Source of the DNA: Patescibacteria group bacterium
GTDB taxonomy: Bacteria > Patescibacteriota > Minisyncoccia > Phycocordibacterales > XYD1-FULL-46-19
NCBI GenBank assembly: GCA_048617235.1
Contig: JBMCHT010000001.1
Coordinates: 1-52,042, forward strand
Length of the DNA stretch: 52,042 nucleotides
Reading direction: 5' to 3'
Of this stretch, positions 41,466-52,042 are shown piece after piece. The notes beneath the pieces are model-generated. The model worked only from the letters and a program-made list of their open reading frames with translations. It was not told the DNA's origin and did not search any database. The position numbers and the translations under genes are program-made. Within the stretch, counting starts at the first letter, position 1. Each line of letters begins with the position of its first letter.

Positions 41466-42881
41466 CTATTTTAAAGCTCTAATCATTTTTAGAGCTTTCT
41501 TTTCCAAAGTTTTAATATGATCATTTAAATTATAAATGGTTTCTATATTTTTTTCTTTTATAATCAAAATTTTATCTAATTTAATTTTTTCCAAGAAATA
41601 TCTATCATGAGAAACTATTAGTAAAGAACCGGAATAATCCTTTAACATTTCCTCTAAAGCTTCCATGGTCTCCATATCTAAATTATTGGTGGGCTCATCT
41701 AAAACCAAACAATTAATAGATTTCACGGTAAATAGAGCAAACAAAACTCGAGCTCTTTCTCCGGGACTTAATGAAATAATTTTACCGGTAATATTTTTTT
41801 CATTTAAACCGAATTTAACCAACAATGAAAAAATTTCAGACTGATTTAAATCACTATTTAACTTCATAAACTCAATTACTGTTTTTTCTTTTGGTAAATT
41901 TGTATATTCTTGAGTTAAATTACCGAAAAAAACTTTAGAACCAATTGAGCGTTCACCGGCCAAAGGTTTTAACTCTCCGGTTATAGTTTTTAAAAGACTG
42001 GTTTTACCACTACCATTTAAACCTAAAATAGCCACCCTTTCACCTAAAGAAATATCCAGTGATAGGGGATTTAATTTAAAAGTTTGAGGATGACCAACAA
42101 TCACTTCAGATAATTTAATCCAAAATTTCTTTTCATTTCCTTTTCTATCTATATCCATATTTAAACCTTTTCTGGCAATCGGATTGTCTATTTTTTCCTG
42201 CTGATTTTCATAATCTTCCTTTTGTTTATTAAACTCATCTTGACGCCGTTTCAAATAATTAGTGTAACTGCCGGATTCAAGTAATATTTCAGATTGAGCC
42301 CAATCAAGTTCCATCACCCCTCCAACTACTTTATCTAAAAATTTTCTATCATGGGAAACTACTATACAAGTTAAATTAACCTCCTGTAAAAAGTTTTCCA
42401 ACCAAATTAAAGAGGGAATATCCAAATTATTTGTTGGTTCATCTAAAAGTATTAAATCCGGTTCTGTTAATAAAATTTTAATCAGTTGAATTTTTGTTTT
42501 TTGGCCGGTAGATAATTTATCTAATTGAAAAGAAAGAATTTCTGTTTCAAAACCAAATCCGGTTAAAAAGATTAGTATTTTTAGACGAAGTTTATCATTT
42601 GGCTTTTTTTCATTTTCAAATAAATAACCTTCAACTGTTTGCTTGGTTAAAAAAGATAAGTCTTGCGGTAAATACCCGATTTTGGTTTCTTTTTTAATAT
42701 CTATTAAACCACTATCTATATCTTCTATCCCGGCTATTATTTTTAGTAAAGTGGATTTACCAACTCCATTATACCCAACCAAGGCTATTTTTTGCCCCGG
42801 CTCTATAGTAAAAGAAATATTTTTCAATACAGATCGAGAACCATAACTTTTATTTACTTTTTTAAACTTAATTAAACTCAT
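41466..42881 (-). CDS. ABC-F family ATPase
   Basis: Two ABC domains (GYNGVGKS, GLNGSGKT, LDEPTNNLD twice, VSHDR twice) and no TM segments. Confidence 0.9.
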   Translation of the reverse strand: MSLIKFKKVNKSYGSRSVLKNISFTIEPGQKIALVGYNGVGKSTLLKIIAGIEDIDSGLIDIKKETKIGYLPQDLSFLTKQTVEGYLFENEKKPNDKLRLKILIFLTGFGFETEILSFQLDKLSTGQKTKIQLIKILLTEPDLILLDEPTNNLDIPSLIWLENFLQEVNLTCIVVSHDRKFLDKVVGGVMELDWAQSEILLESGSYTNYLKRRQDEFNKQKEDYENQQEKIDNPIARKGLNMDIDRKGNEKKFWIKLSEVIVGHPQTFKLNPLSLDISLGERVAILGLNGSGKTSLLKTITGELKPLAGERSIGSKVFFGNLTQEYTNLPKEKTVIEFMKLNSDLNQSEIFSLLVKFGLNEKNITGKIISLSPGERARVLFALFTVKSINCLVLDEPTNNLDMETMEALEEMLKDYSGSLLIVSHDRYFLEKIKLDKILIIKEKNIETIYNLNDHIKTLEKKALKMIRALK

Positions 42882-43009
42882 ATAAGAATTATAGCATTAA
42901 ATTACTTGTTGTTAGCTAAGAATAAAATCAAGGGAATATTTCTAAACCTTGATTAAATTTTTATATTTAAACGTTTTTAAAGATTATTAACAATGAAATT
43001 TATTAACTA

Positions 43010-43037
43010 TTGCCAACAGTTTTTTGTTGTTTAAAAT
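43010..43037 (+). promoter_or_regulatory. Candidate promoter for the Gly-rich peptide
   Basis: TTGCCA-N16-TAAAAT with TG extension, about 70 nt upstream of ATG 43107. Confidence 0.45.
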
Positions 43038-43106
43038 GGTTATTAGATAAAACAAGGTCTTTCATAAGGAAAGATCAAAACTCGGATCAGAAAGGAGGTG
43101 AAAATA

Positions 43107-43217
43107 ATGGGAAAGAAAGGTTCAGGCGGCCACGGAGGTGGTCGACACGGCTCTGGCGGTCAACGCGGAGGCGGAGGAGGTGGCACAGGTGGAGCTACCG
43201 GCGTACGAGGCAAATAG
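43107..43217 (+). CDS. 36-aa Gly-rich basic peptide MGKKGSGGHGGGRHGSGGQRGGGGGGTGGATGVRGK
   Basis: SD CAGAAAGGAGGTGA-N5-ATG; 20 of 36 residues are Gly; own terminator. Confidence 0.75.
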   Translation: MGKKGSGGHGGGRHGSGGQRGGGGGGTGGATGVRGK

Positions 43218-43246
43218 ACTCGCTTTCCACTCATTCTTGACCGTAT

Positions 43247-43283
43247 GTCTGGTGTGTATTTCATCTACATACCAGACTTTTTT
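43247..43283 (+). terminator. Intrinsic terminator after the Gly-rich peptide
   Basis: GTCTGGTGTGTA / TACATACCAGAC stem (one G-U pair) followed by T6. Confidence 0.8.
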
Positions 43284-43299
43284 ATGTTAAAATAAATTT

Positions 43300-44577
43300 A
43301 TGGAAAAACATATAATTTCACAAAAAAGGCTTAAAAACGGATCAAATTTGATTCATATAAAAATATCCAATTGGCCACTTTCTTTAATTTCTGTTTGGTT
43401 TAAAACAGGATCAAGGTATGACCCAATAAAAAAGGAAGGTTTAGCTCATTTTGTAGAACATTTATTTTTTAAAAAAACCAAAAATTACAATACTCCTCAA
43501 AAAAAATTTAAAGAAATAGAGTCTTTAGGAATAGAGTTAAATGCTTACACCACTAAAGAAAATACTGTTTATTATCATTCACAAATTAAAGAAAGTACGG
43601 AAAAATCAATCTCTTTATTGTTAGATTCTTTAAAAAACCATTTAATTACTGCTAAAGATGTAGAATCTGAAAAAAAAGTTATCTTAGATGAATTAAATAG
43701 GGATTACCAAGATTCAGATAGTTATATATATACTTTAGCCGAGGCTAATTTATGGCCTCAAGATCCAATCGGTCGAAACATTCTCGGGACTAAAGATAGT
43801 ATAAATAAAATTACTTTTAAAGATGTTAAAGATTTTATTAAAAATAATTATAGTCAAGCCCCCGATTTTCTATTTATAGGAGATATGGAATTAACTGAAG
43901 TAATTAATATATTAAATAAAGAAAATTTAATATTTAAAAATCCAACTAAAGAAAAAATAAATGAAACAGTATCTTCACCTAAATTAATTTTAATAAACAA
44001 AAGACCGGAAAATCACTTGACTATCAGTATAAGCTTTCAAACTGTTTCTATTAAAAACACTTCGGAAAATATTAAATTACATTTATTGATGGCTTATTTA
44101 GCTAATGGTTGGATATCTAAATTAATTGATTCTTTAAGAGTTAAACATAATTTATCTTATTGGGTTAATGGGCAAATGGTTGCCTTAAGTGATAGAGGTT
44201 ATATACAATTTGTTTTTAATGTTGATAAAAAAGAATTGAATCGATCTTTAAAATTAATTTTTAGTGAAATTAAAAAACTAAAACAAATAAATATCGTAAA
44301 AGATGACATTGAAGCTCATAAAAGTTCTTTAATTTCTTCTATTAGACATACCAACATAACCCCATCTGCTTTAATGTGGTGGTATGGATGGGATATGTCT
44401 TTAAATGGAAAAAGTGAAACTCCATCATCTTATATAAATAAAATTAAAAATTTAGATTTTTCAGATATCAAAGAAGTTGCCAAAAAATATTTTAAAAAAG
44501 ACAATTTATCTATCAGTATTATAGGAAATGTTTCAAAAAAAGAAGTAGGGGATATTATTGCAAAAATTAAATTTTAA
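43300..44577 (+). CDS. M16 (pitrilysin-family) zinc peptidase
   Basis: GSRYD....GLAHFVEHL (HxxEH), NAYT and C-domain LR...NLSY; no signal peptide. Confidence 0.92.
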   Translation: MEKHIISQKRLKNGSNLIHIKISNWPLSLISVWFKTGSRYDPIKKEGLAHFVEHLFFKKTKNYNTPQKKFKEIESLGIELNAYTTKENTVYYHSQIKESTEKSISLLLDSLKNHLITAKDVESEKKVILDELNRDYQDSDSYIYTLAEANLWPQDPIGRNILGTKDSINKITFKDVKDFIKNNYSQAPDFLFIGDMELTEVINILNKENLIFKNPTKEKINETVSSPKLILINKRPENHLTISISFQTVSIKNTSENIKLHLLMAYLANGWISKLIDSLRVKHNLSYWVNGQMVALSDRGYIQFVFNVDKKELNRSLKLIFSEIKKLKQINIVKDDIEAHKSSLISSIRHTNITPSALMWWYGWDMSLNGKSETPSSYINKIKNLDFSDIKEVAKKYFKKDNLSISIIGNVSKKEVGDIIAKIKF

Positions 44578-44578
44578 A

Positions 44579-44864
44579 ATGAAATTCTCAAGATCTAATT
44601 TTAAAAAAAATAAAAAAATTTTTAAATCCTTTAGTTGATTCAGTAGTTAAAAAATATATTAAGGATTATAAAATAAAACATCAAACAGATTTAACTTATA
44701 AATTCAATGAACTAGAACAAGCTGGCTGGAAATATTTAGATTTTGCTCTAATAAAATATCTTGAACGAATTGAAGATGAAAATAAAGATTATTTATTTAC
44801 TCAATATTTTACTTGGTTTATAAGGCAGGGAGTTCACGAGTACACAATAATTGAAGTAGAATAA
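44579..44864 (+). pseudogene. Stand-alone sigma-70 region-2-like mini-protein (94 aa), broken by +1 A in the A8 run at 44603-44610
   Basis: Removing one A gives MKFSRSNFKKIKKFLNPLVDSVVKKY...FNELEQAGWKYLDFALIKYLERIEDENKDYLFTQYFTWFIRQGVHEY..., matching the sigma region-2 pattern LV.S.AKKY...DL.Q.G..GL..A..KF...FSTYATWWIRQAI. Confidence 0.7.
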
Positions 44865-44914
44865 AAAAAAATAATTAAAATAATATTAGATTTTTTGTAT
44901 ATTTTATATAAAGT

Positions 44915-44923
44915 TTATCCACA
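44915..44923 (+). promoter_or_regulatory. Consensus DnaA box TTATCCACA inside the duplicated leader (copy at 50510-50518, minus strand)
   Basis: Exact 9-mer match to the DnaA-box consensus; function here unproven. Confidence 0.45.
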
Positions 44924-44996
44924 CCTTTTCTTGCTTTTTTTTTACTTTTACTAAGATGGAAATAGAAACTGCATTCCAACCAAAAAAGGAAAAAGA

Positions 44997-45116
44997 ATGT
45001 TTAATCCTTATTTACCCGATCCTCCGGGTATGGATTTGGAAAAATGCCTGGGAGAAGGATCCGCCTTGCCCCAAGAAACTCATTCCGATCTCAATCATCT
45101 GACAGATGATTTGTGA
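44997..45116 (+). CDS. Possible 39-aa ORF within the duplicated leader (MFNPYLPDPPGMDLEKCLGEGSALPQETHSDLNHLTDDL); second copy at 50317-50436 (-)
   Basis: AAAGGA upstream of the ATG, ends TGA TAA; may instead be non-coding structured RNA. Confidence 0.3.
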   Translation: MFNPYLPDPPGMDLEKCLGEGSALPQETHSDLNHLTDDL

Positions 45117-45145
45117 TAAATTCACACAGAAAGGAGGTGAAAATT

Positions 45146-45232
45146 ATGAGTGACCCTAAGGAGCAGCGTTGGGACAACGATTGGGATGACGGAGCATCCC
45201 AAGATTGCGGAAACCTCCCCTCGGGAAGTTAA
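45146..45232 (+). CDS. 28-aa acidic Trp-containing peptide MSDPKEQRWDNDWDDGASQDCGNLPSGS
   Basis: SD CAGAAAGGAGGTGA-N5-ATG; own terminator; directly upstream of the M16 and S9 peptidases. Confidence 0.72.
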   Translation: MSDPKEQRWDNDWDDGASQDCGNLPSGS

Positions 45233-45252
45233 CTGACACTAAACGCACACTC

Positions 45253-45289
45253 AACCCCGAATCTTCAAAAGATTCGGGGTTACCTTTTT
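45253..45289 (+). terminator. Intrinsic terminator after the 28-aa peptide
   Basis: AACCCCGAATCTT-CAA-AAGATTCGGGGTT, a perfect 13-bp stem, then ACCTTTTT. Confidence 0.82.
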
Positions 45290-45323
45290 AAGTAAAATAT
45301 AATAATATTGTTAATATGTTTAT

Positions 45324-46511
45324 ATGTTAAAAGATAAAATCTCATTTTATTCACAAATTAATTCCAGATTTGGACTTCAATCTTTGGAAATCTGGATTCC
45401 TTATGGTTTTCGTCATGAAAACTCAACTGAAGAAGGTTATACTCATTTAATAGAACATTTAATGATGAGTGGATCCAAAACTTATCCGACAGAAAAAGAA
45501 TTAGCGAATGTTATAGATAAAACCGGGGCTATAATTAATGCCACAACCTCTACAGAATATATGAGAATTTATAGTTTATTTATACCAGAACATTTAAAAT
45601 TAATAACCTCGGTACTTTTTGATAAAATATTTAATCCAATTATAAATCAAAAGAAGATTGAAAAAGAAATTAAAATATTAGAATCCGAAGCCGAACACAA
45701 TAAGTCTAATCCTTTTACTCAAATTCAAAGATTAGCCACCGCTCAAATTTTAAATTCTAGTGGAATTAAAACTGTTATTAATGGAGAAAAACCAAAAAAT
45801 ACACCCACAGCGGAAATTCTTAAAGATTTCTATTATAAAAGATTAACTAATTCTAAGATTATTGTCTCAACAGCTGGACCATTAAAAAAAGACAAGGTAA
45901 TCACAGAAATCAATCATTCTTTGAAAGATTTAAACACTTATTCAAAAATAAAAATTCCGAATTCTTTTAATCTAGAAAAAATACCAACAAAAATAGTGAA
46001 TAATAAAAACAAACACTTGGCTATTTCCTTTAAAACTCCTTCGGCCGTTAACGATCTCAATTATGTTTTTAAAATAATAGGGGATTATTTAACTGGAGGA
46101 TATAATTCGGAGTTATATCAAAAATTAAGACTAAAAGAAGAACTGATATATTCTGCCACTGCTAAAAATGTATTATTTTCAGATATAGGAATTTTTTCTA
46201 TTTATACTCATTCTCATAATATTAACAAAACTATCGATAAAATATTTGAAATATTAAATAACCTAACCGAAAATCCTCAAAAAATAGATTGGAATACTAT
46301 AAAAGATCGCTTAATTCTAAAACAAAAACAAAATAGCTTATCTTCACCTTTAATAAATAGCTATCATAATAGTCATTCTTTCATTACCACCGGAGAATTT
46401 ATTACTTTAAAACAAGAAGAAGAAAAAATAAAGCGAATTAATTTAAAAGATATAAGAAAAGTTTTAAAATATTTAAAACTAAATAAAGCAGTTATAACTA
46501 CAATCAAATAA
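45324..46511 (+). CDS. M16 (pitrilysin-family) zinc peptidase
   Basis: G.THLIEHLM..GSKTYP (HxxEH), NATTS and S.LYQKLR...LIYS. Confidence 0.9.
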   Translation: MLKDKISFYSQINSRFGLQSLEIWIPYGFRHENSTEEGYTHLIEHLMMSGSKTYPTEKELANVIDKTGAIINATTSTEYMRIYSLFIPEHLKLITSVLFDKIFNPIINQKKIEKEIKILESEAEHNKSNPFTQIQRLATAQILNSSGIKTVINGEKPKNTPTAEILKDFYYKRLTNSKIIVSTAGPLKKDKVITEINHSLKDLNTYSKIKIPNSFNLEKIPTKIVNNKNKHLAISFKTPSAVNDLNYVFKIIGDYLTGGYNSELYQKLRLKEELIYSATAKNVLFSDIGIFSIYTHSHNINKTIDKIFEILNNLTENPQKIDWNTIKDRLILKQKQNSLSSPLINSYHNSHSFITTGEFITLKQEEEKIKRINLKDIRKVLKYLKLNKAVITTIK

Positions 46512-46523
46512 AATAATAATTAA

Positions 46524-48299
46524 ATGCATAAGTGCCAACCAACAGATTTTTTAAATATATCATCAGTTAGAGATTTTTCTTTAAATTGTAATGAAAAACA
46601 CATTGCTTGTATAATCAAAGAAAAAACAAAGCAACGACTTTTTATATATTCTATAGAAAATAAAACTCTTAAAAAACCAACAAAAGAATTCGATACTGTC
46701 TCCTTTGTTAAATTTTCTCCCTCTGATAAAAACCTGCTCTTAGTTAAAGCAGCTAGAATTAATGATCAATATTTAAGTTTCTTTTTTTTAAATATAAAAA
46801 ATAAAACTCAAAAAAAATTACCGGAACCACCTGATACTCTTATTCGCTTTGGAAATTGGTCACCCCAAGGAGATAAAATAACTTATGCTATAAATAAAAA
46901 AAATGAAAAAGATTTTAAAATAAAGATTTTCAATTTAAAAACCAATACAACAAGGGATGTTTTTTCTTTAAAAACTTCTTGTTCTGTTCCGGGTTTTTCT
47001 CCCAAAGAATCTTTTCTAATAATACTGGAACATATTTCCTCAATTAAAACTAATTGTTATTTATTGAATTTAAAAACCAATAAGATTAAAAAAATAATCA
47101 CAAATAACAAAAGCCAAGATTTTATTATAGCCGGAATTAAATGGTTATCAGATGAATCTGGTTTTTATTATATATCGGATAAAAATTGCGATAGAAATTC
47201 TTTATATTTTTTTGATTTAGTAAAAAATAAAAGTAAATTAATTACTGAAACACCCGGAGATTTGCAAAATATACATAAATCAAATACTGAAAAATTTTTA
47301 TTTTTAGCTATTAATGAAGGAGGTAAAATATTATTGTACAAATTTAATATAAAAAACAATAAATTATCTAAAAAAATAGAATTTCCAAAAGGTTCTATTG
47401 ATTCTTTTTTACTTTCTAAAGACAATCTAGCAATAATGACTTGCAGTAGTCCAACTCAGGGTTCAAGTTTATATTCTTATAATAAATCCTTTAAACAATT
47501 AATTGCTTCTAAACAAAAAATACCACCTAAAAACTTAGTTAGTCCCATCTCTTTTTATTATAAATCTTTTGATAATTTAAAAATACAAAACTTTCTTTTT
47601 TTGCCTAAAAATAAAAAAATAAAATATCCATTGTTTATATTTTTACATGGTGGCCCAGCCTCTTTATATGTTCCTAATTATAATTCTTTAATTCAATTTT
47701 TAGTAAATAAAGGCTATGCGGTGGCGGCTCCAAATATAAGAGGAAGTTCCGGTTATGGAAAAAAATTTAAAACTTTAGATGATAAAGAAAAACGTTATCA
47801 TGCTTTGAAAGACGTTATTTATTTACAAAGATTTTTAAAAAAGGAATATAATCAAATAAATACCGACAAAACTATACTGTGTGGAGAATCTTATGGTGGA
47901 TTTTTAACTATGTTATTGTTAGCTTTATATCCTCAAAAATGGTTAAAAGGTATTTCTATTTCAGGTATATCTAATTTTATTACTTATTTAGAAAATATCC
48001 CTGAATGGAGAAGGCCTGTCAGAGAAGAAGAATATGGATCATTAAAACACAATAAAGTCTTATTAAAAGCCTTATCTCCTATAAATAACAAAGAAACTAT
48101 TCAATCACCTTTATTATTAATCCATGGTAAAAATGATACTCAAGTACCATTAGACCAAACATTAGATATGTATAAAGCCCTTAAAAAACTAAATAAAAAA
48201 GTAGAAAAAATTATTTATACAGATGAAGGACATATTATATATAAAAAGAAAAACCGTCTAAATTTATATAAAAAAATTATTACTTTTATAGAAAATTAA
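46524..48299 (+). CDS. S9 family (prolyl oligopeptidase / acylaminoacyl peptidase-like) serine peptidase
   Basis: N-terminal beta-propeller repeats (FSP, WSP), HGGP, N.RGSSGYG, GESYGG nucleophile, HG.ND..V and EGH. Confidence 0.93.
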   Translation: MHKCQPTDFLNISSVRDFSLNCNEKHIACIIKEKTKQRLFIYSIENKTLKKPTKEFDTVSFVKFSPSDKNLLLVKAARINDQYLSFFFLNIKNKTQKKLPEPPDTLIRFGNWSPQGDKITYAINKKNEKDFKIKIFNLKTNTTRDVFSLKTSCSVPGFSPKESFLIILEHISSIKTNCYLLNLKTNKIKKIITNNKSQDFIIAGIKWLSDESGFYYISDKNCDRNSLYFFDLVKNKSKLITETPGDLQNIHKSNTEKFLFLAINEGGKILLYKFNIKNNKLSKKIEFPKGSIDSFLLSKDNLAIMTCSSPTQGSSLYSYNKSFKQLIASKQKIPPKNLVSPISFYYKSFDNLKIQNFLFLPKNKKIKYPLFIFLHGGPASLYVPNYNSLIQFLVNKGYAVAAPNIRGSSGYGKKFKTLDDKEKRYHALKDVIYLQRFLKKEYNQINTDKTILCGESYGGFLTMLLLALYPQKWLKGISISGISNFITYLENIPEWRRPVREEEYGSLKHNKVLLKALSPINNKETIQSPLLLIHGKNDTQVPLDQTLDMYKALKKLNKKVEKIIYTDEGHIIYKKKNRLNLYKKIITFIEN

Positions 48300-48312
48300 T
48301 TAACATTTCATT

Positions 48313-48420
48313 ATGTTTTTAAACACCTGGCACAATTTACTAAAAATGGAAAAACACGATCTTGATTGGCATCAAGAAGATTTAAAAACAGAATTAGTGG
48401 AATACAAAGAAGCTACCGGA
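48313..48420 (+). pseudogene. 5' fragment of a hypothetical gene, fused out of frame to the ribA fragment
   Basis: MFLNTWHNLLKMEKHDLDWHQEDLKTELVEYKEATG looks protein-like, then runs into ribA sequence in another frame and stops at 48468. Confidence 0.45.
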
Positions 48421-48662
48421 GGCCCTTGGGTTTCCTCCAGAGATGAGAGATTACACATGTGTTCGTGACATGTTGGCTGATTTAAAAGTTAAAAGTATTA
48501 GACTTCTAACTAATAATCCTGATAAAATTAATAAATTAACAGAATTAGGAGTTATTGTTCAAGGTGTCGAATCAATAGAGGTGTTACCTAATTTACTCAA
48601 TAAAAGGTATTTAAGAACAAAAAAAAGATAAAATGAATCATAAATTGAGAAAAATAAAATGA
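48419..48662 (+). pseudogene. ribA: GTP cyclohydrolase II, C-terminal fragment
   Basis: EALGFPPEMRDY...IRLLTNNPDK...N.RYL.TKK. Removing one A from the A8 run near 48619-48626 restores the usual DKMNH ending and an ATGA overlap with the next gene. The N-terminal catalytic part is absent. Confidence 0.8.
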
Positions 48663-49192
48663 AAATTGCAATCGGAACAACCTCAGAAAATAAGACAGCT
48701 ATAGTAAAAGCTTTTTTTGGAGATATTAAAAATTTTATGATCGTTCCATGTGATGTGAGCTCTGGTGTAACTGATCAGCCATTAGATGAATTTACAACAA
48801 GAGAAGGCGCTATAAATCGGGCAAAAAATGCTTTCGAGATGACACTTGAGACTGATATAGATTTTTCACTTGGACTTGAGGGGGGGCTTGTGTTAATTGA
48901 TAACACTTATTTTTTGTTATGTGTAGCTGTAATTACTGATAACTCTGGAGTTGACATAGTTGGTATGAGCGATACCCTTCCTCTACCTCAATATGTGTCT
49001 GACCAGATTGCGAATGGTAAAGAGTTTGGTGTATCAATTAGAGAGTTCCAAGAGTCTTTAATAGCTAATATTGACGATAATATTAAGAACTGGATTGATG
49101 AATTAATTAGCCGTCGCTCTAGTTTTCTAATGGCAATCGGATCTGCTTATATTCAATATCTAAAATTAGTAGTAGATCGCACAAAAAAATAG
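48659..49192 (+). CDS. Non-canonical purine NTP phosphatase (YjjX / DUF84 family)
   Basis: IAIGT...K, SSGV.DQP, GA.NRA and GLEGG. Confidence 0.85.
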   Translation: MKIAIGTTSENKTAIVKAFFGDIKNFMIVPCDVSSGVTDQPLDEFTTREGAINRAKNAFEMTLETDIDFSLGLEGGLVLIDNTYFLLCVAVITDNSGVDIVGMSDTLPLPQYVSDQIANGKEFGVSIREFQESLIANIDDNIKNWIDELISRRSSFLMAIGSAYIQYLKLVVDRTKK

Positions 49193-49220
49193 ACATTACC
49201 AAGTAATTGGTAATGTCTAT
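49189..49220. terminator. 14-bp perfect hairpin at the end of the YjjX-like gene
   Basis: ATAGACATTACCAA-GTAA-TTGGTAATGTCTAT. Confidence 0.65.
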
Positions 49221-49222
49221 GC

Positions 49223-49315
49223 TATTGTGAAATCTTCGAGGATTGTTCTGGAGGATGCCCACTACTATGGACGGTGTATCCGCCGGACAAAATGATTGTA
49301 GGATGGTCGAAATAA
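49223..49315 (+). pseudogene. 3' remnant of a radical SAM/SPASM-domain gene
   Basis: Start-less frame YCEIFEDCSGGCPLLWTVYPPDKMIVGWSK*; C-x5-C-x-G-G-C-P matches the end of the SPASM Cx2Cx5Cx3C motif; followed by its own terminator. Confidence 0.65.
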
Positions 49316-49327
49316 GAAACCAAACCA

Positions 49328-49368
49328 AACCCCTTGGCGCAATATAATGTACCAAGGGGTTATCTTTT
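49328..49368 (+). terminator. Intrinsic terminator after the SPASM remnant
   Basis: AACCCCTTGG...CCAAGGGGTT stem, then ATCTTTT. Confidence 0.7.
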
Positions 49369-49412
49369 GTTAAAATAATTTTATAATTATTAATTATTCA
49401 TATCTATAAAAC

Positions 49413-50045
49413 ATGTCTACTATACTGATAAAATTCAAATTCGATATTGAATCTGAAATCCGAAGAGTAAAAGAAACTTTGGATAACTTAGGGTGGCTCA
49501 CAAAAAATAACTACAGATTCCTTTTACCCTCCAACATAAAAAAAGACGCCAGCACTGATGATATTAAACAGGCAATAGAAAACGAGTATAATTTACAAAT
49601 TTATCAGATTGCTGAAAAAGCCATTTTAAAATCATGGGAAGGAAACAATAAATTATTAAAAAAAATTAACCAGAAATTAAAGAATTCGTATCAACTAGAC
49701 GAAGTAGAAGTAATATTAACTGCATATGGAACACAAGGCAGTTATTCGACACCAAATTCAATCATTATAAATATTTCTACTGGTACTCCTCCGGAATTTT
49801 TAATCAAAACAGTAATCCACGAATCTTTACATTTAATGATCGAGCATCTCATTAAGAGATATTCTGTCGAACATTGGGTCAAAGAACACATTGTGGACTT
49901 AATAATGGATTTAGAATATCAATCACGTTTTAAGATGCAGTCTGTGCCTGATTGGGTTTTAGAAATAGACCCAATATTCAAAAAAGATTACCCAAATATA
50001 GATATTATTACAGAGAAAGTTGGAAAAATCTTCCCCAAGAAGTGA
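49413..50045 (+). CDS. Hypothetical protein with HExxH zinc-metallopeptidase-like motif
   Basis: YGTQGSY...IIIN...VIHESLH with downstream KE.IVD as candidate third ligand. Confidence 0.7.
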   Translation: MSTILIKFKFDIESEIRRVKETLDNLGWLTKNNYRFLLPSNIKKDASTDDIKQAIENEYNLQIYQIAEKAILKSWEGNNKLLKKINQKLKNSYQLDEVEVILTAYGTQGSYSTPNSIIINISTGTPPEFLIKTVIHESLHLMIEHLIKRYSVEHWVKEHIVDLIMDLEYQSRFKMQSVPDWVLEIDPIFKKDYPNIDIITEKVGKIFPKK

Positions 50046-50066
50046 ATTGAGTCAGATTAAATTATT

Positions 50067-50104
50067 AAAAAATTCCGGTATGCCTAAAATAGGCATACCA
50101 GAGT
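50067..50104 (-). terminator. Intrinsic terminator after the Cys-rich peptide (probably bidirectional)
   Basis: GGTATGCCTA-AAA-TAGGCATACC 10-bp stem (50077-50099) with a T-run on the minus strand. Confidence 0.8.
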
Positions 50105-50125
50105 CACTCCTGTCAAAAACTTCAG

Positions 50126-50287
50126 TCATTGACCGGAACAATCGCAGTTGCATTCACATGCACCCCAACCGCCGTCGCAGTTGCCAGTGATACAGTCTCC
50201 ATCCCCTTGGATTTGAGGAGAGAAGCCACGAACATTTCTCTGACAAGAAATCCCCGTCACTTTAAGAAATTTTACGAACTCTTCCAT
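50126..50287 (-). CDS. 53-aa Cys-rich peptide MEEFVKFLKVTGISCQRNVRGFSPQIQGDGDCITGNCDGGWGACECNCDCSGQ
   Basis: SD CAGAAAGGAGGTGA-N5-ATG places the start at 50287, not the track's 50320; 7 Cys including CxCxCxC; own terminator. Confidence 0.78.
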   Translation of the reverse strand: MEEFVKFLKVTGISCQRNVRGFSPQIQGDGDCITGNCDGGWGACECNCDCSGQ

Positions 50288-50292
50288 TATCA

Positions 50293-50568
50293 TCACCTCC
50301 TTTCTGTGTGAATTTATCACAAATCATCTGTCAGATGATTGAGATCGGAATGAGTTTCTTGGGGCAAGGCGGATCCTTCTCCCAGGCATTTTTCCAAATC
50401 CATACCCGGAGGATCGGGTAAATAAGGATTAAACATTCTTTTTCCTTTTTTGGTTGGAATGCAGTTTCTATTTCCATCTTAGTAAAAGTAAAAAAAAAGC
50501 AAGAAAAGGTGTGGATAAACTTTATATAAAATATACAAAAAATCTAATATTATTTTAATTATTTTTTT
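50293..50568 (-). repeat. 276-bp leader, copy 2 (inverted duplicate of 44865-45140)
   Basis: Reverse complement matches copy 1 by eye over the full length. Confidence 0.95.
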
Positions 50569-50762
50569 ATTTACTAATTCTTTATTGTTTATAAAATTTT
50601 AAGAATATGATAAAGACATAACATTATTTTACAATAATCAACATTTATAATCTAGTTTTTTATTAAATAATAAAAAACTAGACAATCACAACTTTATCTC
50701 TAAAATAAATGACAAAAGCTTAAAAATGTTATAGAATAAAAGAGTAGCCGAAGGTTAAGACT

Positions 50763-51458
50763 ATGACAGATATAGCTATTCTTAAATATTTTGTTCCCAT
50801 TTACCAAATAACCATTTGGCCGGTTTGCCGTCTTTTATTGTTTATTTTTGGTAATTTAAAAGTTTCCGGAATAGAAAACCTTAAAGATATACAATCCGGA
50901 GTTATTTTGGCGGCTAATCATACAACCGCCATGGATCCGGTAATAATCCGAACAGCTATGCCTTTTTGGGGTTATCATAAGGCTACTTATGCTGTTTCTT
51001 TAACTAAAGAAAATTACGATACCTTTTGGGGTCGTTTATTGTATGGTGGTTGGTTTTTTAAAATAATTGGAGCTTGGCCGGCCTTTAGAAAAACAGGGGA
51101 TTACAAAAAAAGTTTTAAATACCATATATACCTGCTAAATAACAAAAAAGCTGTTATAATTTTCCCAGAAGGGGGGAGGAATAAATTAAGTAAACCTATG
51201 GACAAAAAACCGAAGCCGGGATTGATTCATTTATCTCTTTTAACTAATACTCCTATTATTCCCATATCCATTAAAGGTCAAGCTGGTTTAAATCCTTTAT
51301 CCTTTTTTTTAAGAAAACATAGAATGTCTGTTCATTTTCACCAACCAATTAAACCGGAAGATTTAAAAGAAAAATATCCTGATTTAAAAGCTGAAGAAAA
51401 AAGTGATGGAAGTATTCGAGCGGTTAAAGAAATTATGGATAATATTTATAAAATATAA
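50763..51458 (+). CDS. Lysophospholipid acyltransferase (PlsC family)
   Basis: ANHTTAMD (HX4D), IFPEGGR and PIIPISI. Confidence 0.9.
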   Translation: MTDIAILKYFVPIYQITIWPVCRLLLFIFGNLKVSGIENLKDIQSGVILAANHTTAMDPVIIRTAMPFWGYHKATYAVSLTKENYDTFWGRLLYGGWFFKIIGAWPAFRKTGDYKKSFKYHIYLLNNKKAVIIFPEGGRNKLSKPMDKKPKPGLIHLSLLTNTPIIPISIKGQAGLNPLSFFLRKHRMSVHFHQPIKPEDLKEKYPDLKAEEKSDGSIRAVKEIMDNIYKI

Positions 51459-51463
51459 AAAGC

Positions 51464-52042
51464 ATGATTTATTTAAAATCTATACAATTAAGAGATGGTG
51501 ATTTATTTTGCTCAGATATTAAAGCAAACGATATTGATAATCTTAATAAAGTTTTTCAACTTCGACATGAAATTTTCGTTAAAAATTTAAAATGGGTAAA
51601 AAACAATGATGATAAATTAGAATCAGATAAATATGATAAAAATTCAATAATTTTTGCTGTATTTTTAAATAAAGAAATATTGGGAACCGTAAGAGTGATA
51701 TTGCCTACAGAAAAATTTATGTTAGAAGATGATTTTCATTATCTTTTAGATGAAAATCATACTATAATTAAAAATAAAGCGATAGAAATATCTAGATTGG
51801 GAGTAAAATCAGAAATAAAAGACAACCCTAAACTTAAAAAAAGAGTCGTCATGCTTTTATATAAAACATTATATAAATGGGCAAGTGAAAATGATATACG
51901 TTATTTTTATTTTGTGTCTACTGAAAAATTTTTAAATTCCTTAGACAGTAGGTTTTCTATACCTATACACTTATTTAAAAAAATAGCATCTGCTCCAAAT
52001 TGTCCTAAATATAGAGCAGCTTTAATAGATTTAAAAGAATCT
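51464..52042 (+). CDS. LuxI-like acyl-homoserine-lactone synthase / N-acyl amino acid synthase (GNAT fold), 3'-truncated by window edge
   Basis: 193 open codons to the window end: FQLRHEIFVKNLKW...LESDKYD...GTVRVILPT..FML...F..LL...IEISRLGV, containing the R,F,W,E,D,D,R,E,S,R pattern conserved in LuxI-family enzymes. Missing from the ORF track because there is no stop in the window. Confidence 0.78.
   Translation, partial: MIYLKSIQLRDGDLFCSDIKANDIDNLNKVFQLRHEIFVKNLKWVKNNDDKLESDKYDKNSIIFAVFLNKEILGTVRVILPTEKFMLEDDFHYLLDENHTIIKNKAIEISRLGVKSEIKDNPKLKKRVVMLLYKTLYKWASENDIRYFYFVSTEKFLNSLDSRFSIPIHLFKKIASAPNCPKYRAALIDLKES

Follow-up and report, generated by a model that had tools for sequence, protein, structure and literature searches.

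How have two unrelated peptide genes, on opposite strands and at the two ends of a 5.15-kb block of genes, come to be preceded by the same 276-bp leader? The question arises in the window, a 52,042-nt stretch of a Patescibacteria group genome whose relevant features are collected in Table 1. The original prediction had taken the leader for a reusable expression cassette into which different peptide genes are plugged, the two copies being the result of recent duplication or gene conversion and able, as inverted repeats, to flip the DNA between them.

Table 1. Features of the locus (window coordinates).
Feature	Position	Strand	Remarks
pep1, 36-aa Gly-rich peptide gene	43107..43217	+	14-nt SD; upstream of M16 peptidase a
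M16 peptidase a	43300..44577	+	Pfam PF00675 and PF05193
Disrupted 'mini-sigma' gene	44579..44864	+	ATG frame stops after 19 codons
Repeat copy A	44865..45140	+	Fills the whole intergenic gap from the mini-sigma remnant to the pep2 gene
DnaA-box-like 9-mer TTATCCACA	44915..44923	+	Mirror copy at 50518
Promoter-like site, copy A	44931..44966	+	TTGCTT 44931-44936, TAAGAT 44952-44957, ATAGA 44962-44966 (regex)
ORF39, orphan 39-codon ORF	44997..45116	+	Mirror copy 50317-50436, minus strand
Perfect 19-nt palindrome	45093..45111	+	9-nt arms, 1 central base; within the 3' end of ORF39
Second palindrome	45112..45126	+	5-nt arms, 5-nt spacer; spans the ORF39 stop codons
Extended SD CAGAAAGGAGGTGA, 14 nt	45127..45140	+	3' end of the repeat
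pep2, 28-aa orphan peptide gene	45146..45232	+	Behind copy A; starts 8 nt after GGAGG
pep2 terminator-like hairpin	45253-45281
M16 peptidase b	45324-46511	+	Pfam; within the repeat-flanked block
S9 peptidase	46524-48299	+	Pfam; within the repeat-flanked block
Radical SAM/SPASM maturase remnant	49193..49312	+	Last 38 codons, one in-frame TAA
210-aa HExxH protein gene	49413..50045	+	Convergent with pep3; conserved partner
pep3 terminator-like hairpin	50102-50074	-
pep3, 53-aa Cys-rich peptide gene	50126..50287	-	Behind copy B; starts 8 nt after GGAGG
Repeat copy B	50293..50568	-	Promoter/leader of pep3

Identity, borders and copy number of the repeat

Copy A and the reverse complement of copy B match at 276 of 276 positions, as originally noticed, and a scan for repeat pairs widens the match to 296 nt at 98% identity (44853-45148 and 50285-50580). 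Identity stops at 45140, directly after ...AGGAGGTGA, and the sequences past both borders are unrelated; outside the 5' border, 12 nt of A-rich sequence match at 8 of 12 positions. The observation that identity ends at the SD, with different ORFs of 28 and 53 aa downstream, was verified for the borders as well as for the ORFs.

A whole-genome sequence search found exactly two copies of the repeat in 642,865 bases (E 1.7e-153 and 7.3e-144). A DNA search of 60 relatives returned just AT-rich or SD stretches of 15-60 nt (best E 8.1e-5), none of them convincing, and the leader was absent from 32 related loci, that is, 23 metagenome loci with pep3 homologues and nine loci with the HExxH neighbour. 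The original prediction itself held that a single orientation and a lack of further copies would reduce the cassette to a one-off duplication; since none was found in the genome, the relatives or the related loci, the 276-bp unit looks like the product of a recent one-off copying event and not like a widely reused cassette. The other part of the prediction was upheld, namely that a promoter/leader/SD unit, now in front of two unrelated peptide genes, was duplicated or gene-converted very recently. An IS element, a MITE or a composite transposon was considered and rejected: no transposase domain was found in the 15 scanned ORFs of 41.5-52 kb, in line with the first reading of the sequence, the flanks adjoining the two copies have no common direct repeat that could be a target-site duplication, and the copies are only two.

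In 200 genomes of the order, a search with pep2 matched nothing beyond noise within larger ORFs, and the 32 related loci gave no homologue of it. The block that follows it also contains a GTP cyclohydrolase II fragment (Pfam). The gene upstream of copy A had been called a mini-sigma gene. A sigma-like frame does exist (44583-44864, with no canonical start in the window) and has a weak similarity to RpoD region 2 (E 0.004), but the gene is disrupted here in comparison with P0015, an intact 118-aa protein on another metagenome contig that is 98% identical, has about 20 residues extra and matches RpoD region 2 with an E of 0.00066. Mini-sigma ORFs inside the HExxH genes of related loci, suggested by weak tblastn matches, were rejected after direct comparison (E 11).

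A promoter-like site, a small ORF and two palindromes within the leader

The promoter-like TTGCTT...TAAGAT is present as predicted, though with a spacer of 15 nt, which includes a run of nine T (44935-44943). Because of this spacer, it is missing from a consensus promoter scan, which lists TTAAAA-17-TATATT at 44875-44903 instead. Besides the repeat, 8 of the 15 upstream regions of pep3 homologues show the layout TTGnnn / TAnnnT / 3-7 nt / ATAGA; after shuffling, 0.47 regions on average and at most 3 show it, and in the same genome it turns up in 150 out of 5000 windows drawn at random. The predicted DnaA box was recovered in both copies, as a sequence match only: TTATCCACA occurs three times in the window, two of these being the repeat copies, versus 0.45 expected, and 20 times genome-wide. 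The predicted hairpins correspond to the two palindromes of Table 1. The 19-nt palindrome is confined genome-wide to the two repeat copies, and RNA folding predicts that it forms an 8-bp hairpin.

Between the promoter-like site and the SD lies ORF39. Among the six frames, its own alone has a positive codon log-likelihood (+0.29 per codon; z 2.9 compared with shuffles), and its GC1/2/3 values are 0.59/0.36/0.38. We infer that ORF39 may be translated and that the leader would thus not be purely non-coding. The ORF is an orphan: its stop-to-stop reading of 53 aa had no match below E 0.05 across 200 genomes of the order and none in the genome-contig database, phmmer with the 39 aa found no credible homologue among 1.84 billion protein representatives (a marginal match concerned a 20-residue stretch of a 2024-aa repeat protein, E 3.4e-4), and none was found in the 32 related loci. 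Two viral contigs retrieved by a pattern search were discarded as chance matches, the identity being limited to nine residues close to the C-terminal end of a 1046-aa protein.

These data bear on a first alternative, in which the repeat acts as a structured regulatory RNA (attenuator- or riboswitch-like), a non-coding leader that was reused, and ORF39 is a chance open frame. Such a leader would account for the two adjacent palindromes immediately 5' of the SD and for the G+C content of the leader, which is above that of its surroundings; hairpin-forming palindromes are also present in the leaders of pep3 homologues, where, by eye, the arms vary by paired changes in one subgroup (loci L054 and L056 versus L066). 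However, a scan of 42000-52042 with Rfam at E <= 1 gave chance-level matches only and no family reached its gathering threshold, the best match being a CRISPR repeat model (22.6 bits versus 39, E 0.27) that was judged fortuitous. The predicted fold of 44950-45150 is hardly more stable than expected (z -1.56), as 18 of 200 shuffled sequences were equally stable, no homologue of the leader that could show covariation was found in the relatives or the related loci, and the positive codon score is restricted to the ORF39 frame. We therefore regard an RNA leader as doubtful.

The pep3 cassette, the SD-led mini-genes and the origin of the unit

We found 13 pep3 homologues with 63-88% identity, and 23 metagenome loci. 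In an alignment of 15 sequences, the core NCxGGWGACECNCDC has four invariant cysteines (C32, C37, C44 and C46) and two nearly invariant ones (C48 and C50). The peptide matches no Pfam or NCBIfam family and no curated precursor model, and among the papers listed by a full-text search on Patescibacteria RiPPs and radical SAM enzymes, no title or opening part of an abstract describes this family. Of 12 representative homologue loci, 11 keep the convergent arrangement with the HExxH gene; in nine of the 12 the HExxH gene is followed by a radical SAM gene, and two more contigs, with the HExxH gene only, are too short. Of 200 other genomes of the order, nine encode the HExxH protein, for which no family of Pfam or NCBIfam scores above its cut-off. 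The radical SAM enzyme of the homologue loci carries a SPASM domain (30.9 bits, cut-off 27), and its best named similarities are the PapB and StsB maturases, with equivalog scores far under the cut-offs (47-51 bits versus 340 for PapB). In the present genome its sole match is the maturase remnant, 71% identical to residues 308-345 of the radical SAM protein of locus L050 (E 3e-13). Judging from these sequence comparisons, pep3 is a real conserved gene that encodes a precursor-like peptide of a three-gene cassette, and this cassette appears to be decaying here, its maturase being cut to a 38-codon remnant.

The 3' border of the repeat was compared with the other SDs of the genome. The 14-nt CAGAAAGGAGGTGA has five genome copies, in front of pep1, pep2, pep3 and two mini-genes on contig 3, each preceding its small ORF at an 8-nt spacer, and all eight GAAAGGAGGTGA sites are upstream of ORFs of 28-88 aa. 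From SD to start, pep1 and pep2 are identical at 21 of 22 nt, and pep1 lacks the rest of the repeat. The sharp 3' border is explained if the copied tract ended, as is probable, inside a 14-nt SD that both genes already had. Few ordinary genes of this genome have an SD, and a small class of G+C-rich mini-genes has a perfect 12-14-nt SD; no copy of the 16S rRNA 3' end in an rRNA context was found within the assembly.

It is moderately likely that a recent ectopic gene conversion or duplication copied the regulatory region of one peptide gene onto another, with pep3 as the likely native owner. In this scenario the 276-bp unit would be a miniature peptide gene's whole regulatory region, made of the promoter-like site, the 188 nt between the -10 and the start codon, with ORF39 and the two palindromes, and the 14-nt extended SD. 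Most likely it would be native to pep3 of the decaying peptide/HExxH/radical SAM cassette, and a very recent non-reciprocal recombination would have set an identical copy before the unrelated pep2, at the head of the M16-S9 peptidase genes. The tract would end 3' in the SD already common to pep2 and pep3, and 5' in A-rich low-complexity sequence. With a common promoter, upstream ORF and candidate operator/hairpin, pep2 and pep3 should now be expressed together.

Copy B is probably the original, its promoter layout matching that of the pep3 homologues. The promoter of pep1 fits the same layout, so the layout does not tie the repeat to pep3 uniquely. Against a pep3 origin, the additional part of the leader that contains ORF39 has no counterpart in the homologues, where the -10 is 48-73 nt from the start codon versus 188 nt in the repeat; against the promoter assignment, the -35 element is poor, the spacer is short and the consensus scan prefers another site. 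We infer the recombination mechanism and the direction of copying, because no sister genome with the pre-event state was recovered. Selection or repeated conversion could alternatively maintain the perfect identity, which would then not reflect a single recent event.

Inversion, assembly and comparison with known systems

A second alternative is that the duplication is the by-product of an inversion of the block, in which breaks staggered across the leader at one end were filled in and left inverted leader duplicates at both ends. Its footprint would be identical to that of conversion, and the copies do lie exactly at both ends of one block, inverted and with sharp borders, among other scars of rearrangement (the radical SAM remnant and the GTP cyclohydrolase II fragment). 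However, pep2 would earlier have had no SD unless the break fell within a pre-existing common SD, the genes of the block are co-oriented with pep1, M16 peptidase a and the mini-sigma remnant, an order that looks ancestral, and the opposite order was seen in no relative. We consider this origin unlikely.

A broader scheme would make the repeat a portable driver that spreads by SD-anchored recombination, in which a translated 39-aa peptide and a palindromic operator co-regulate peptides near M16/S9 peptidases, the block being flipped in part of the population; we hold it to be quite improbable.

Homologous recombination between the copies could invert the 5.15-kb block, and a functional role of the repeats in flipping the peptidase block, as a phase-variation switch, was also considered. 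The block is flanked by inverted repeats and both orientations are compatible with the assembly graph (flank, 2x repeat, inner block, repeat, flank), which was built from contigs only. Against such a switch, there is no recombinase gene near the locus on this contig, as had been remarked from the sequence; the genome has two serine recombinases (PF00239, contigs 2 and 4) and one tyrosine recombinase (PF00589, contig 3), all on other contigs. At 276 bp, the repeats are far longer than the sites of invertases, which are much shorter. Moreover, the promoter, ORF39 and the SD lie inside each identical copy, so that either orientation gives a leader in front of pep2 and a leader in front of pep3; because each copy is a self-contained promoter-to-SD unit, inversion would be nearly neutral for expression. 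A dedicated switch is thus very improbable.

The duplication itself was checked in run X1, the probable source sample, through its Logan unitigs, an independent re-assembly that provides contigs and no reads. The repeat is a separate 276-nt unitig of depth 26 joined to four distinct flanks, with depths of 12.4 in the left flank, 12.6 in the inner 5.2 kb and 11.9 in the right flank. Two low-depth joints with unmatched letters between their sides (44806->48262 and 50572->47334) and short-sided joints (sides <=24 nt) were excluded from interpretation. In run X2, from a second study, a contig covers copy B and 142 nt of its right flank with 0 differences. Although the genome is metagenome-assembled and the repeat exceeds a typical k-mer length, a duplication made by the assembler is scarcely credible, since the repeat forms its own unitig at twice the flank depth and copy B with its right flank is present in a second study, which confines the uncertainty to the orientation of the inner block; the mis-assembly suspected as a possible pitfall was thus set aside.

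Several known systems can be compared with this locus. As in upstream small ORFs and leader peptides, ORF39 lies between promoter and SD, ends 10 nt before the extended SD and is overlapped at its 3' end by hairpin-forming palindromes; unlike them, it has no run of regulatory codons, and no terminator/antiterminator alternative is predicted. The locus resembles invertons and phase-variable promoters in having a DNA segment between inverted repeats, but its repeats measure 276 bp and enclose 5.15 kb of genes, no invertase is adjacent and the promoters are inside the repeats, not between them.

The pep3 cassette recalls those of ranthipeptides (PapB), sactipeptides (StsB) and SCIFF: the peptide is short, its N-terminal part is conserved and its C-terminal core is rich in Cys, and its homologues adjoin a SPASM-domain radical SAM enzyme. 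It differs by the absence of a curated-model match, by equivalog scores far below cut-offs, by a constant third partner, the 210-aa HExxH protein of no described family, and by the loss of the adjacent maturase in this genome, which has no other copy. The locus thus exposes a conserved, undescribed cassette of Patescibacteria-type genomes (Cys-rich 53-aa peptide, HExxH protein and radical SAM/SPASM enzyme), together with a group of G+C-rich mini-genes headed by strong SDs in a genome whose ordinary genes seldom have one, and this context is more useful than the repeat itself.

Ectopic (non-allelic) gene conversion and inverted segmental duplication of regulatory regions occur in bacterial chromosomes. 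The present case is like them in its dispersed copies of perfect identity, with abrupt borders in short pre-existing identity; as in inverted segmental duplications, the copies face opposite ways, and recombination between them can flip the intervening DNA. It is unlike usual conversions in that the tract is a promoter/small ORF/SD unit of two unrelated mini-genes, not a gene-family member or an IS, and in that its 3' anchor is the SD itself. The duplication is of an ordinary type, yet it offers a clean natural case in which a regulatory region was carried over to an unrelated gene, a ribosome-binding site being the probable recombination anchor.

Identity and anatomy of the inverted repeat

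Copy A (44865-45140) and the reverse complement of 50293-50568 (copy B) are identical at 276 of 276 positions, and the sequences flanking both repeat borders are unrelated to each other, which confirms the inverted duplication of the original prediction. A repeat search of the window returned the same pair as 296 nt at 98%, and a search of the whole genome (642,865 bases, four contigs) found only these two copies.

Run X1, a metagenome of a microbial mat and the probable source sample, supplied unitigs independent of the assembly. In these, the repeat stands alone as a node of 276 nt with a depth of 26, compared with 12.4 for the left flank unitig (which ends 30 nt inside the repeat), 12.6 for the inner block (45111-50322) and 11.9 for the right flank. 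This separate node, at depth 26 versus 11.9-12.4 for the flanks, rules out an assembler artefact. In run X2, from a second study, a 425-nt contig covering copy B and the right flank matches 50286-50710 with no differences. The X1 graph is compatible with either orientation of the inner 5.2 kb and so does not independently confirm the assembled one. Two low-depth X1 contigs connect 44806 with 48262 (depth 2.2; 13 unmatched letters at the junction) and 50572 with 47334 (depth 3.5; 20 unmatched letters); a variant strain or other organisms may be their source.

Features of the unit (copy A coordinates) and of its surroundings
Feature	Position	Strand	Remarks
pep1	43107-43217		36-aa Gly-rich ORF
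'mini-sigma' gene	44579-44864	+	disrupted; upstream of copy A
A-rich stretch			5' end of unit, immediately 3' of the upstream ORF's stop codon
TTATCCACA	44915		copy A
Promoter-like site			TTGCTT, 15-nt spacer with T9 run, TAAGAT, ATAGA four bases on
T9 run	44935-44943; 50490-50498		both copies
ORF39	44997-45116		39 codons
Perfect 19-nt palindrome	45093-45111		unique to the repeat within the genome
5+5 palindrome			spans the ORF39 stop codons
CAGAAAGGAGGTGA			14 nt, 3' end of unit
pep2	45146-45232	+	28 aa, after copy A
GTP cyclohydrolase II fragment	48443-48631 (fragment region 48313-48631)	+	probable pseudogene
Maturase remnant (radical SAM/SPASM)	49193-49312	+	last 38 codons, one in-frame TAA
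HExxH gene	49413-50045		convergent with pep3
pep3	50126-50287	-	53 aa, after copy B

In both pep2 and pep3 the start codon lies 8 nt past GGAGG, and a strong terminator-like hairpin follows each ORF. The TTGCTT/TAAGAT site was missed by a consensus promoter scan because its spacer is short; another, weak site (44875-44903) was listed instead. Changes in the length of the T9 run would alter the spacing between the promoter-like hexamers; no length variants were seen in contigs, where rare variants drop out.

The 39-codon ORF39 is probably a small gene: of the six frames it alone scores above zero for codon usage (+0.29 per codon; z 2.9 versus shuffles), with GC1 higher than GC3. The fold of the leader RNA is unremarkable (z -1.56) and the leader has no match in Rfam. 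The start codon lies 188 nt from the -10 element here, versus 48-73 nt in pep3 homologues, and the surplus is the ORF39 region.

The unit was originally proposed to be a reusable cassette, a proposal that finds no support beyond this one pair. In 60 relatives, searches with the repeat DNA gave just AT-rich or Shine-Dalgarno (SD) matches of 15-60 nt. The leader, ORF39 and pep2 turned up in none of the 23 pep3 loci and 9 HExxH loci, and searches of 200 genomes of the order also failed to detect ORF39 or pep2. Against 1.84 billion representatives, phmmer returned a single marginal local match to ORF39; in genome and viral contigs its only match was a 9-residue identity within a 1046-aa viral protein, judged to be chance.

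Origin of the two copies

The genome contains five instances of the 14-mer SD CAGAAAGGAGGTGA, which precede pep1, pep2, pep3 and two small ORFs of contig 3. All eight GAAAGGAGGTGA sites precede ORFs of 28-88 aa, seven of which have a G+C content of at least 0.48 (genome, 0.35-0.36). Among ordinary genes the signal is rare: GGAGG precedes the first start codon of 5 of the 507 ORFs of at least 150 aa in this genome (35 of 507 when all candidate starts within the first 80 codons are considered). The 16S 3' end, sought for the organism's own anti-SD, is absent from the assembly. This SD-poor genome yet holds a small class of mini-genes (28-88 aa, mostly G+C-rich at 0.48-0.65), all preceded by a perfect SD of 12-14 nt and, as a rule, followed by a terminator (examples: C2:143956-, C2:25478-, C3:79065+, C3:153641+, C3:21353- and C1:145171+).

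From SD to start codon, pep1 and pep2 are identical at 21 of 22 nt, and the rest of the repeat is absent at pep1. Judged from this comparison, pep2 and pep3 almost certainly had the 3' 14 nt in common before the event, and the copied tract probably ended inside this already shared stretch. The sharp border at the SD would then be a sign of homology-anchored recombination, not a designed plug-in site.

Of 15 regions upstream of pep3 homologues, which are mutually related loci and hence not independent, 8 have the layout TTGnnn / TAnnnT / 3-7 nt / ATAGA (shuffles: mean 0.47, maximum 3); it also occurs in 3% of random windows of the genome studied here. As the repeat has this layout, it would be pep3's own promoter, and copy A would be derived. 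The layout also fits the promoter of pep1, so that we lean only slightly towards an origin at pep3. In one subgroup of pep3-homologue leaders (L054 5950-6000, L056 270-318 and L066 265-315), a short palindrome lies just before the start region; read by eye, the differences between loci in its two arms are paired.

The evidence best fits a very recent event of ectopic gene conversion or duplicative recombination, in which pep3's regulatory region would have replaced the entire intergenic region before pep2. The 276/276 identity and the unrelated flanks bear out the original suggestion that duplication or gene conversion took place recently. The same footprint would result from an inversion with staggered breaks, which we regard as an improbable source of the inverted copies. 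Gene conversion or duplicative recombination would have left pep2 and pep3 with a common promoter, upstream ORF and palindromes, so co-expression of the two peptides is expected.

Homologous recombination between the copies, which are adequate substrates for it, could invert the inner block. Because each copy runs complete from promoter to SD, both peptides would stay under the same signals after an inversion; only the outer neighbour upstream of each peptide and the orientation of the peptidase genes would change. A domain search of the genome revealed no recombinase near the locus, as had been noted from the sequence.

Peptidase neighbours and decayed genes

The peptide gene pep1 lies upstream of the first M16 peptidase gene (M16a), and pep2 precedes the second (M16b), which is followed by the S9 peptidase gene. 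In another genome, G024, the M16b orthologue (31% identity) is preceded by an ORF of 40 aa that contains Cys and has a strong SD. In the more distant G071 (locus L036), M16 peptidase, peptide, HExxH and radical SAM genes follow in this order in one direction, which likewise puts a peptide gene beside an M16 peptidase. This association suggests a functional link of such peptides with M16 enzymes. Small Cys-containing ORFs adjoin M16 genes in different genera at L071 2817-2939 (-) and L036 7871-8032 (+); both have strong SDs and identical first four residues, and they may form an M16-linked family.

The block 43300-48300 is unusually A+T-rich (0.18-0.30 G+C). The 'mini-sigma' gene reads only 19 codons from its ATG before a stop, and a canonical start is lacking in the sigma-like frame. 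A 118-aa protein encoded on another metagenome contig, 1102 nt long (P0015), is 98% identical and has about 20 more residues, which come behind residue 10 of the reading that begins at the ATG; the likeness to region 2 of sigma-70 is weak (E 0.0007-0.004). The 62-aa ORF of the GTP cyclohydrolase II fragment covers only positions 122-162 of the 165 of the Pfam model. Beyond copy B lie, at 50763-52042 (+), an acyltransferase gene and, after it, an ORF resembling autoinducer synthases (E 1e-11) and the FeeM N-acyl amino acid synthase family (6e-9), unusual cargo in so small a genome.

The pep3 module

The Cys-rich pep3 has 13 homologues in the protein collection (52-72 aa, 63-88% identity), in which the N-terminal part is conserved and the Cys-rich core invariant, and a scan of metagenome contigs yielded 23 pep3 loci. 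Neighbourhoods were counted in 12 representative loci. In nine of them (L047, L048, L050, L051, L052, L054, L056, L063 and L065) the peptide gene is convergent to a gene for a ~210-aa HExxH protein, itself preceded by a radical SAM gene (~346 aa); two, on short contigs, have the HExxH gene only, and L059 has neither. The window retains the convergent pair. Directly upstream of its HExxH gene lies the maturase remnant, which matches the final 38 residues of the L050 enzyme at 71% identity and is the single match in the genome; the pep3 cassette has thus lost its enzyme here.

The HExxH protein, found in nine of 200 further genomes from the order, belongs to no Pfam or NCBIfam family, and a curated family is missing for two of the three parts of the conserved peptide/HExxH/radical SAM-SPASM module. 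A SPASM domain scores above cut-off in the radical SAM protein, which resembles PapB-type and StsB-type peptide maturases but falls far short of their equivalog cut-offs.
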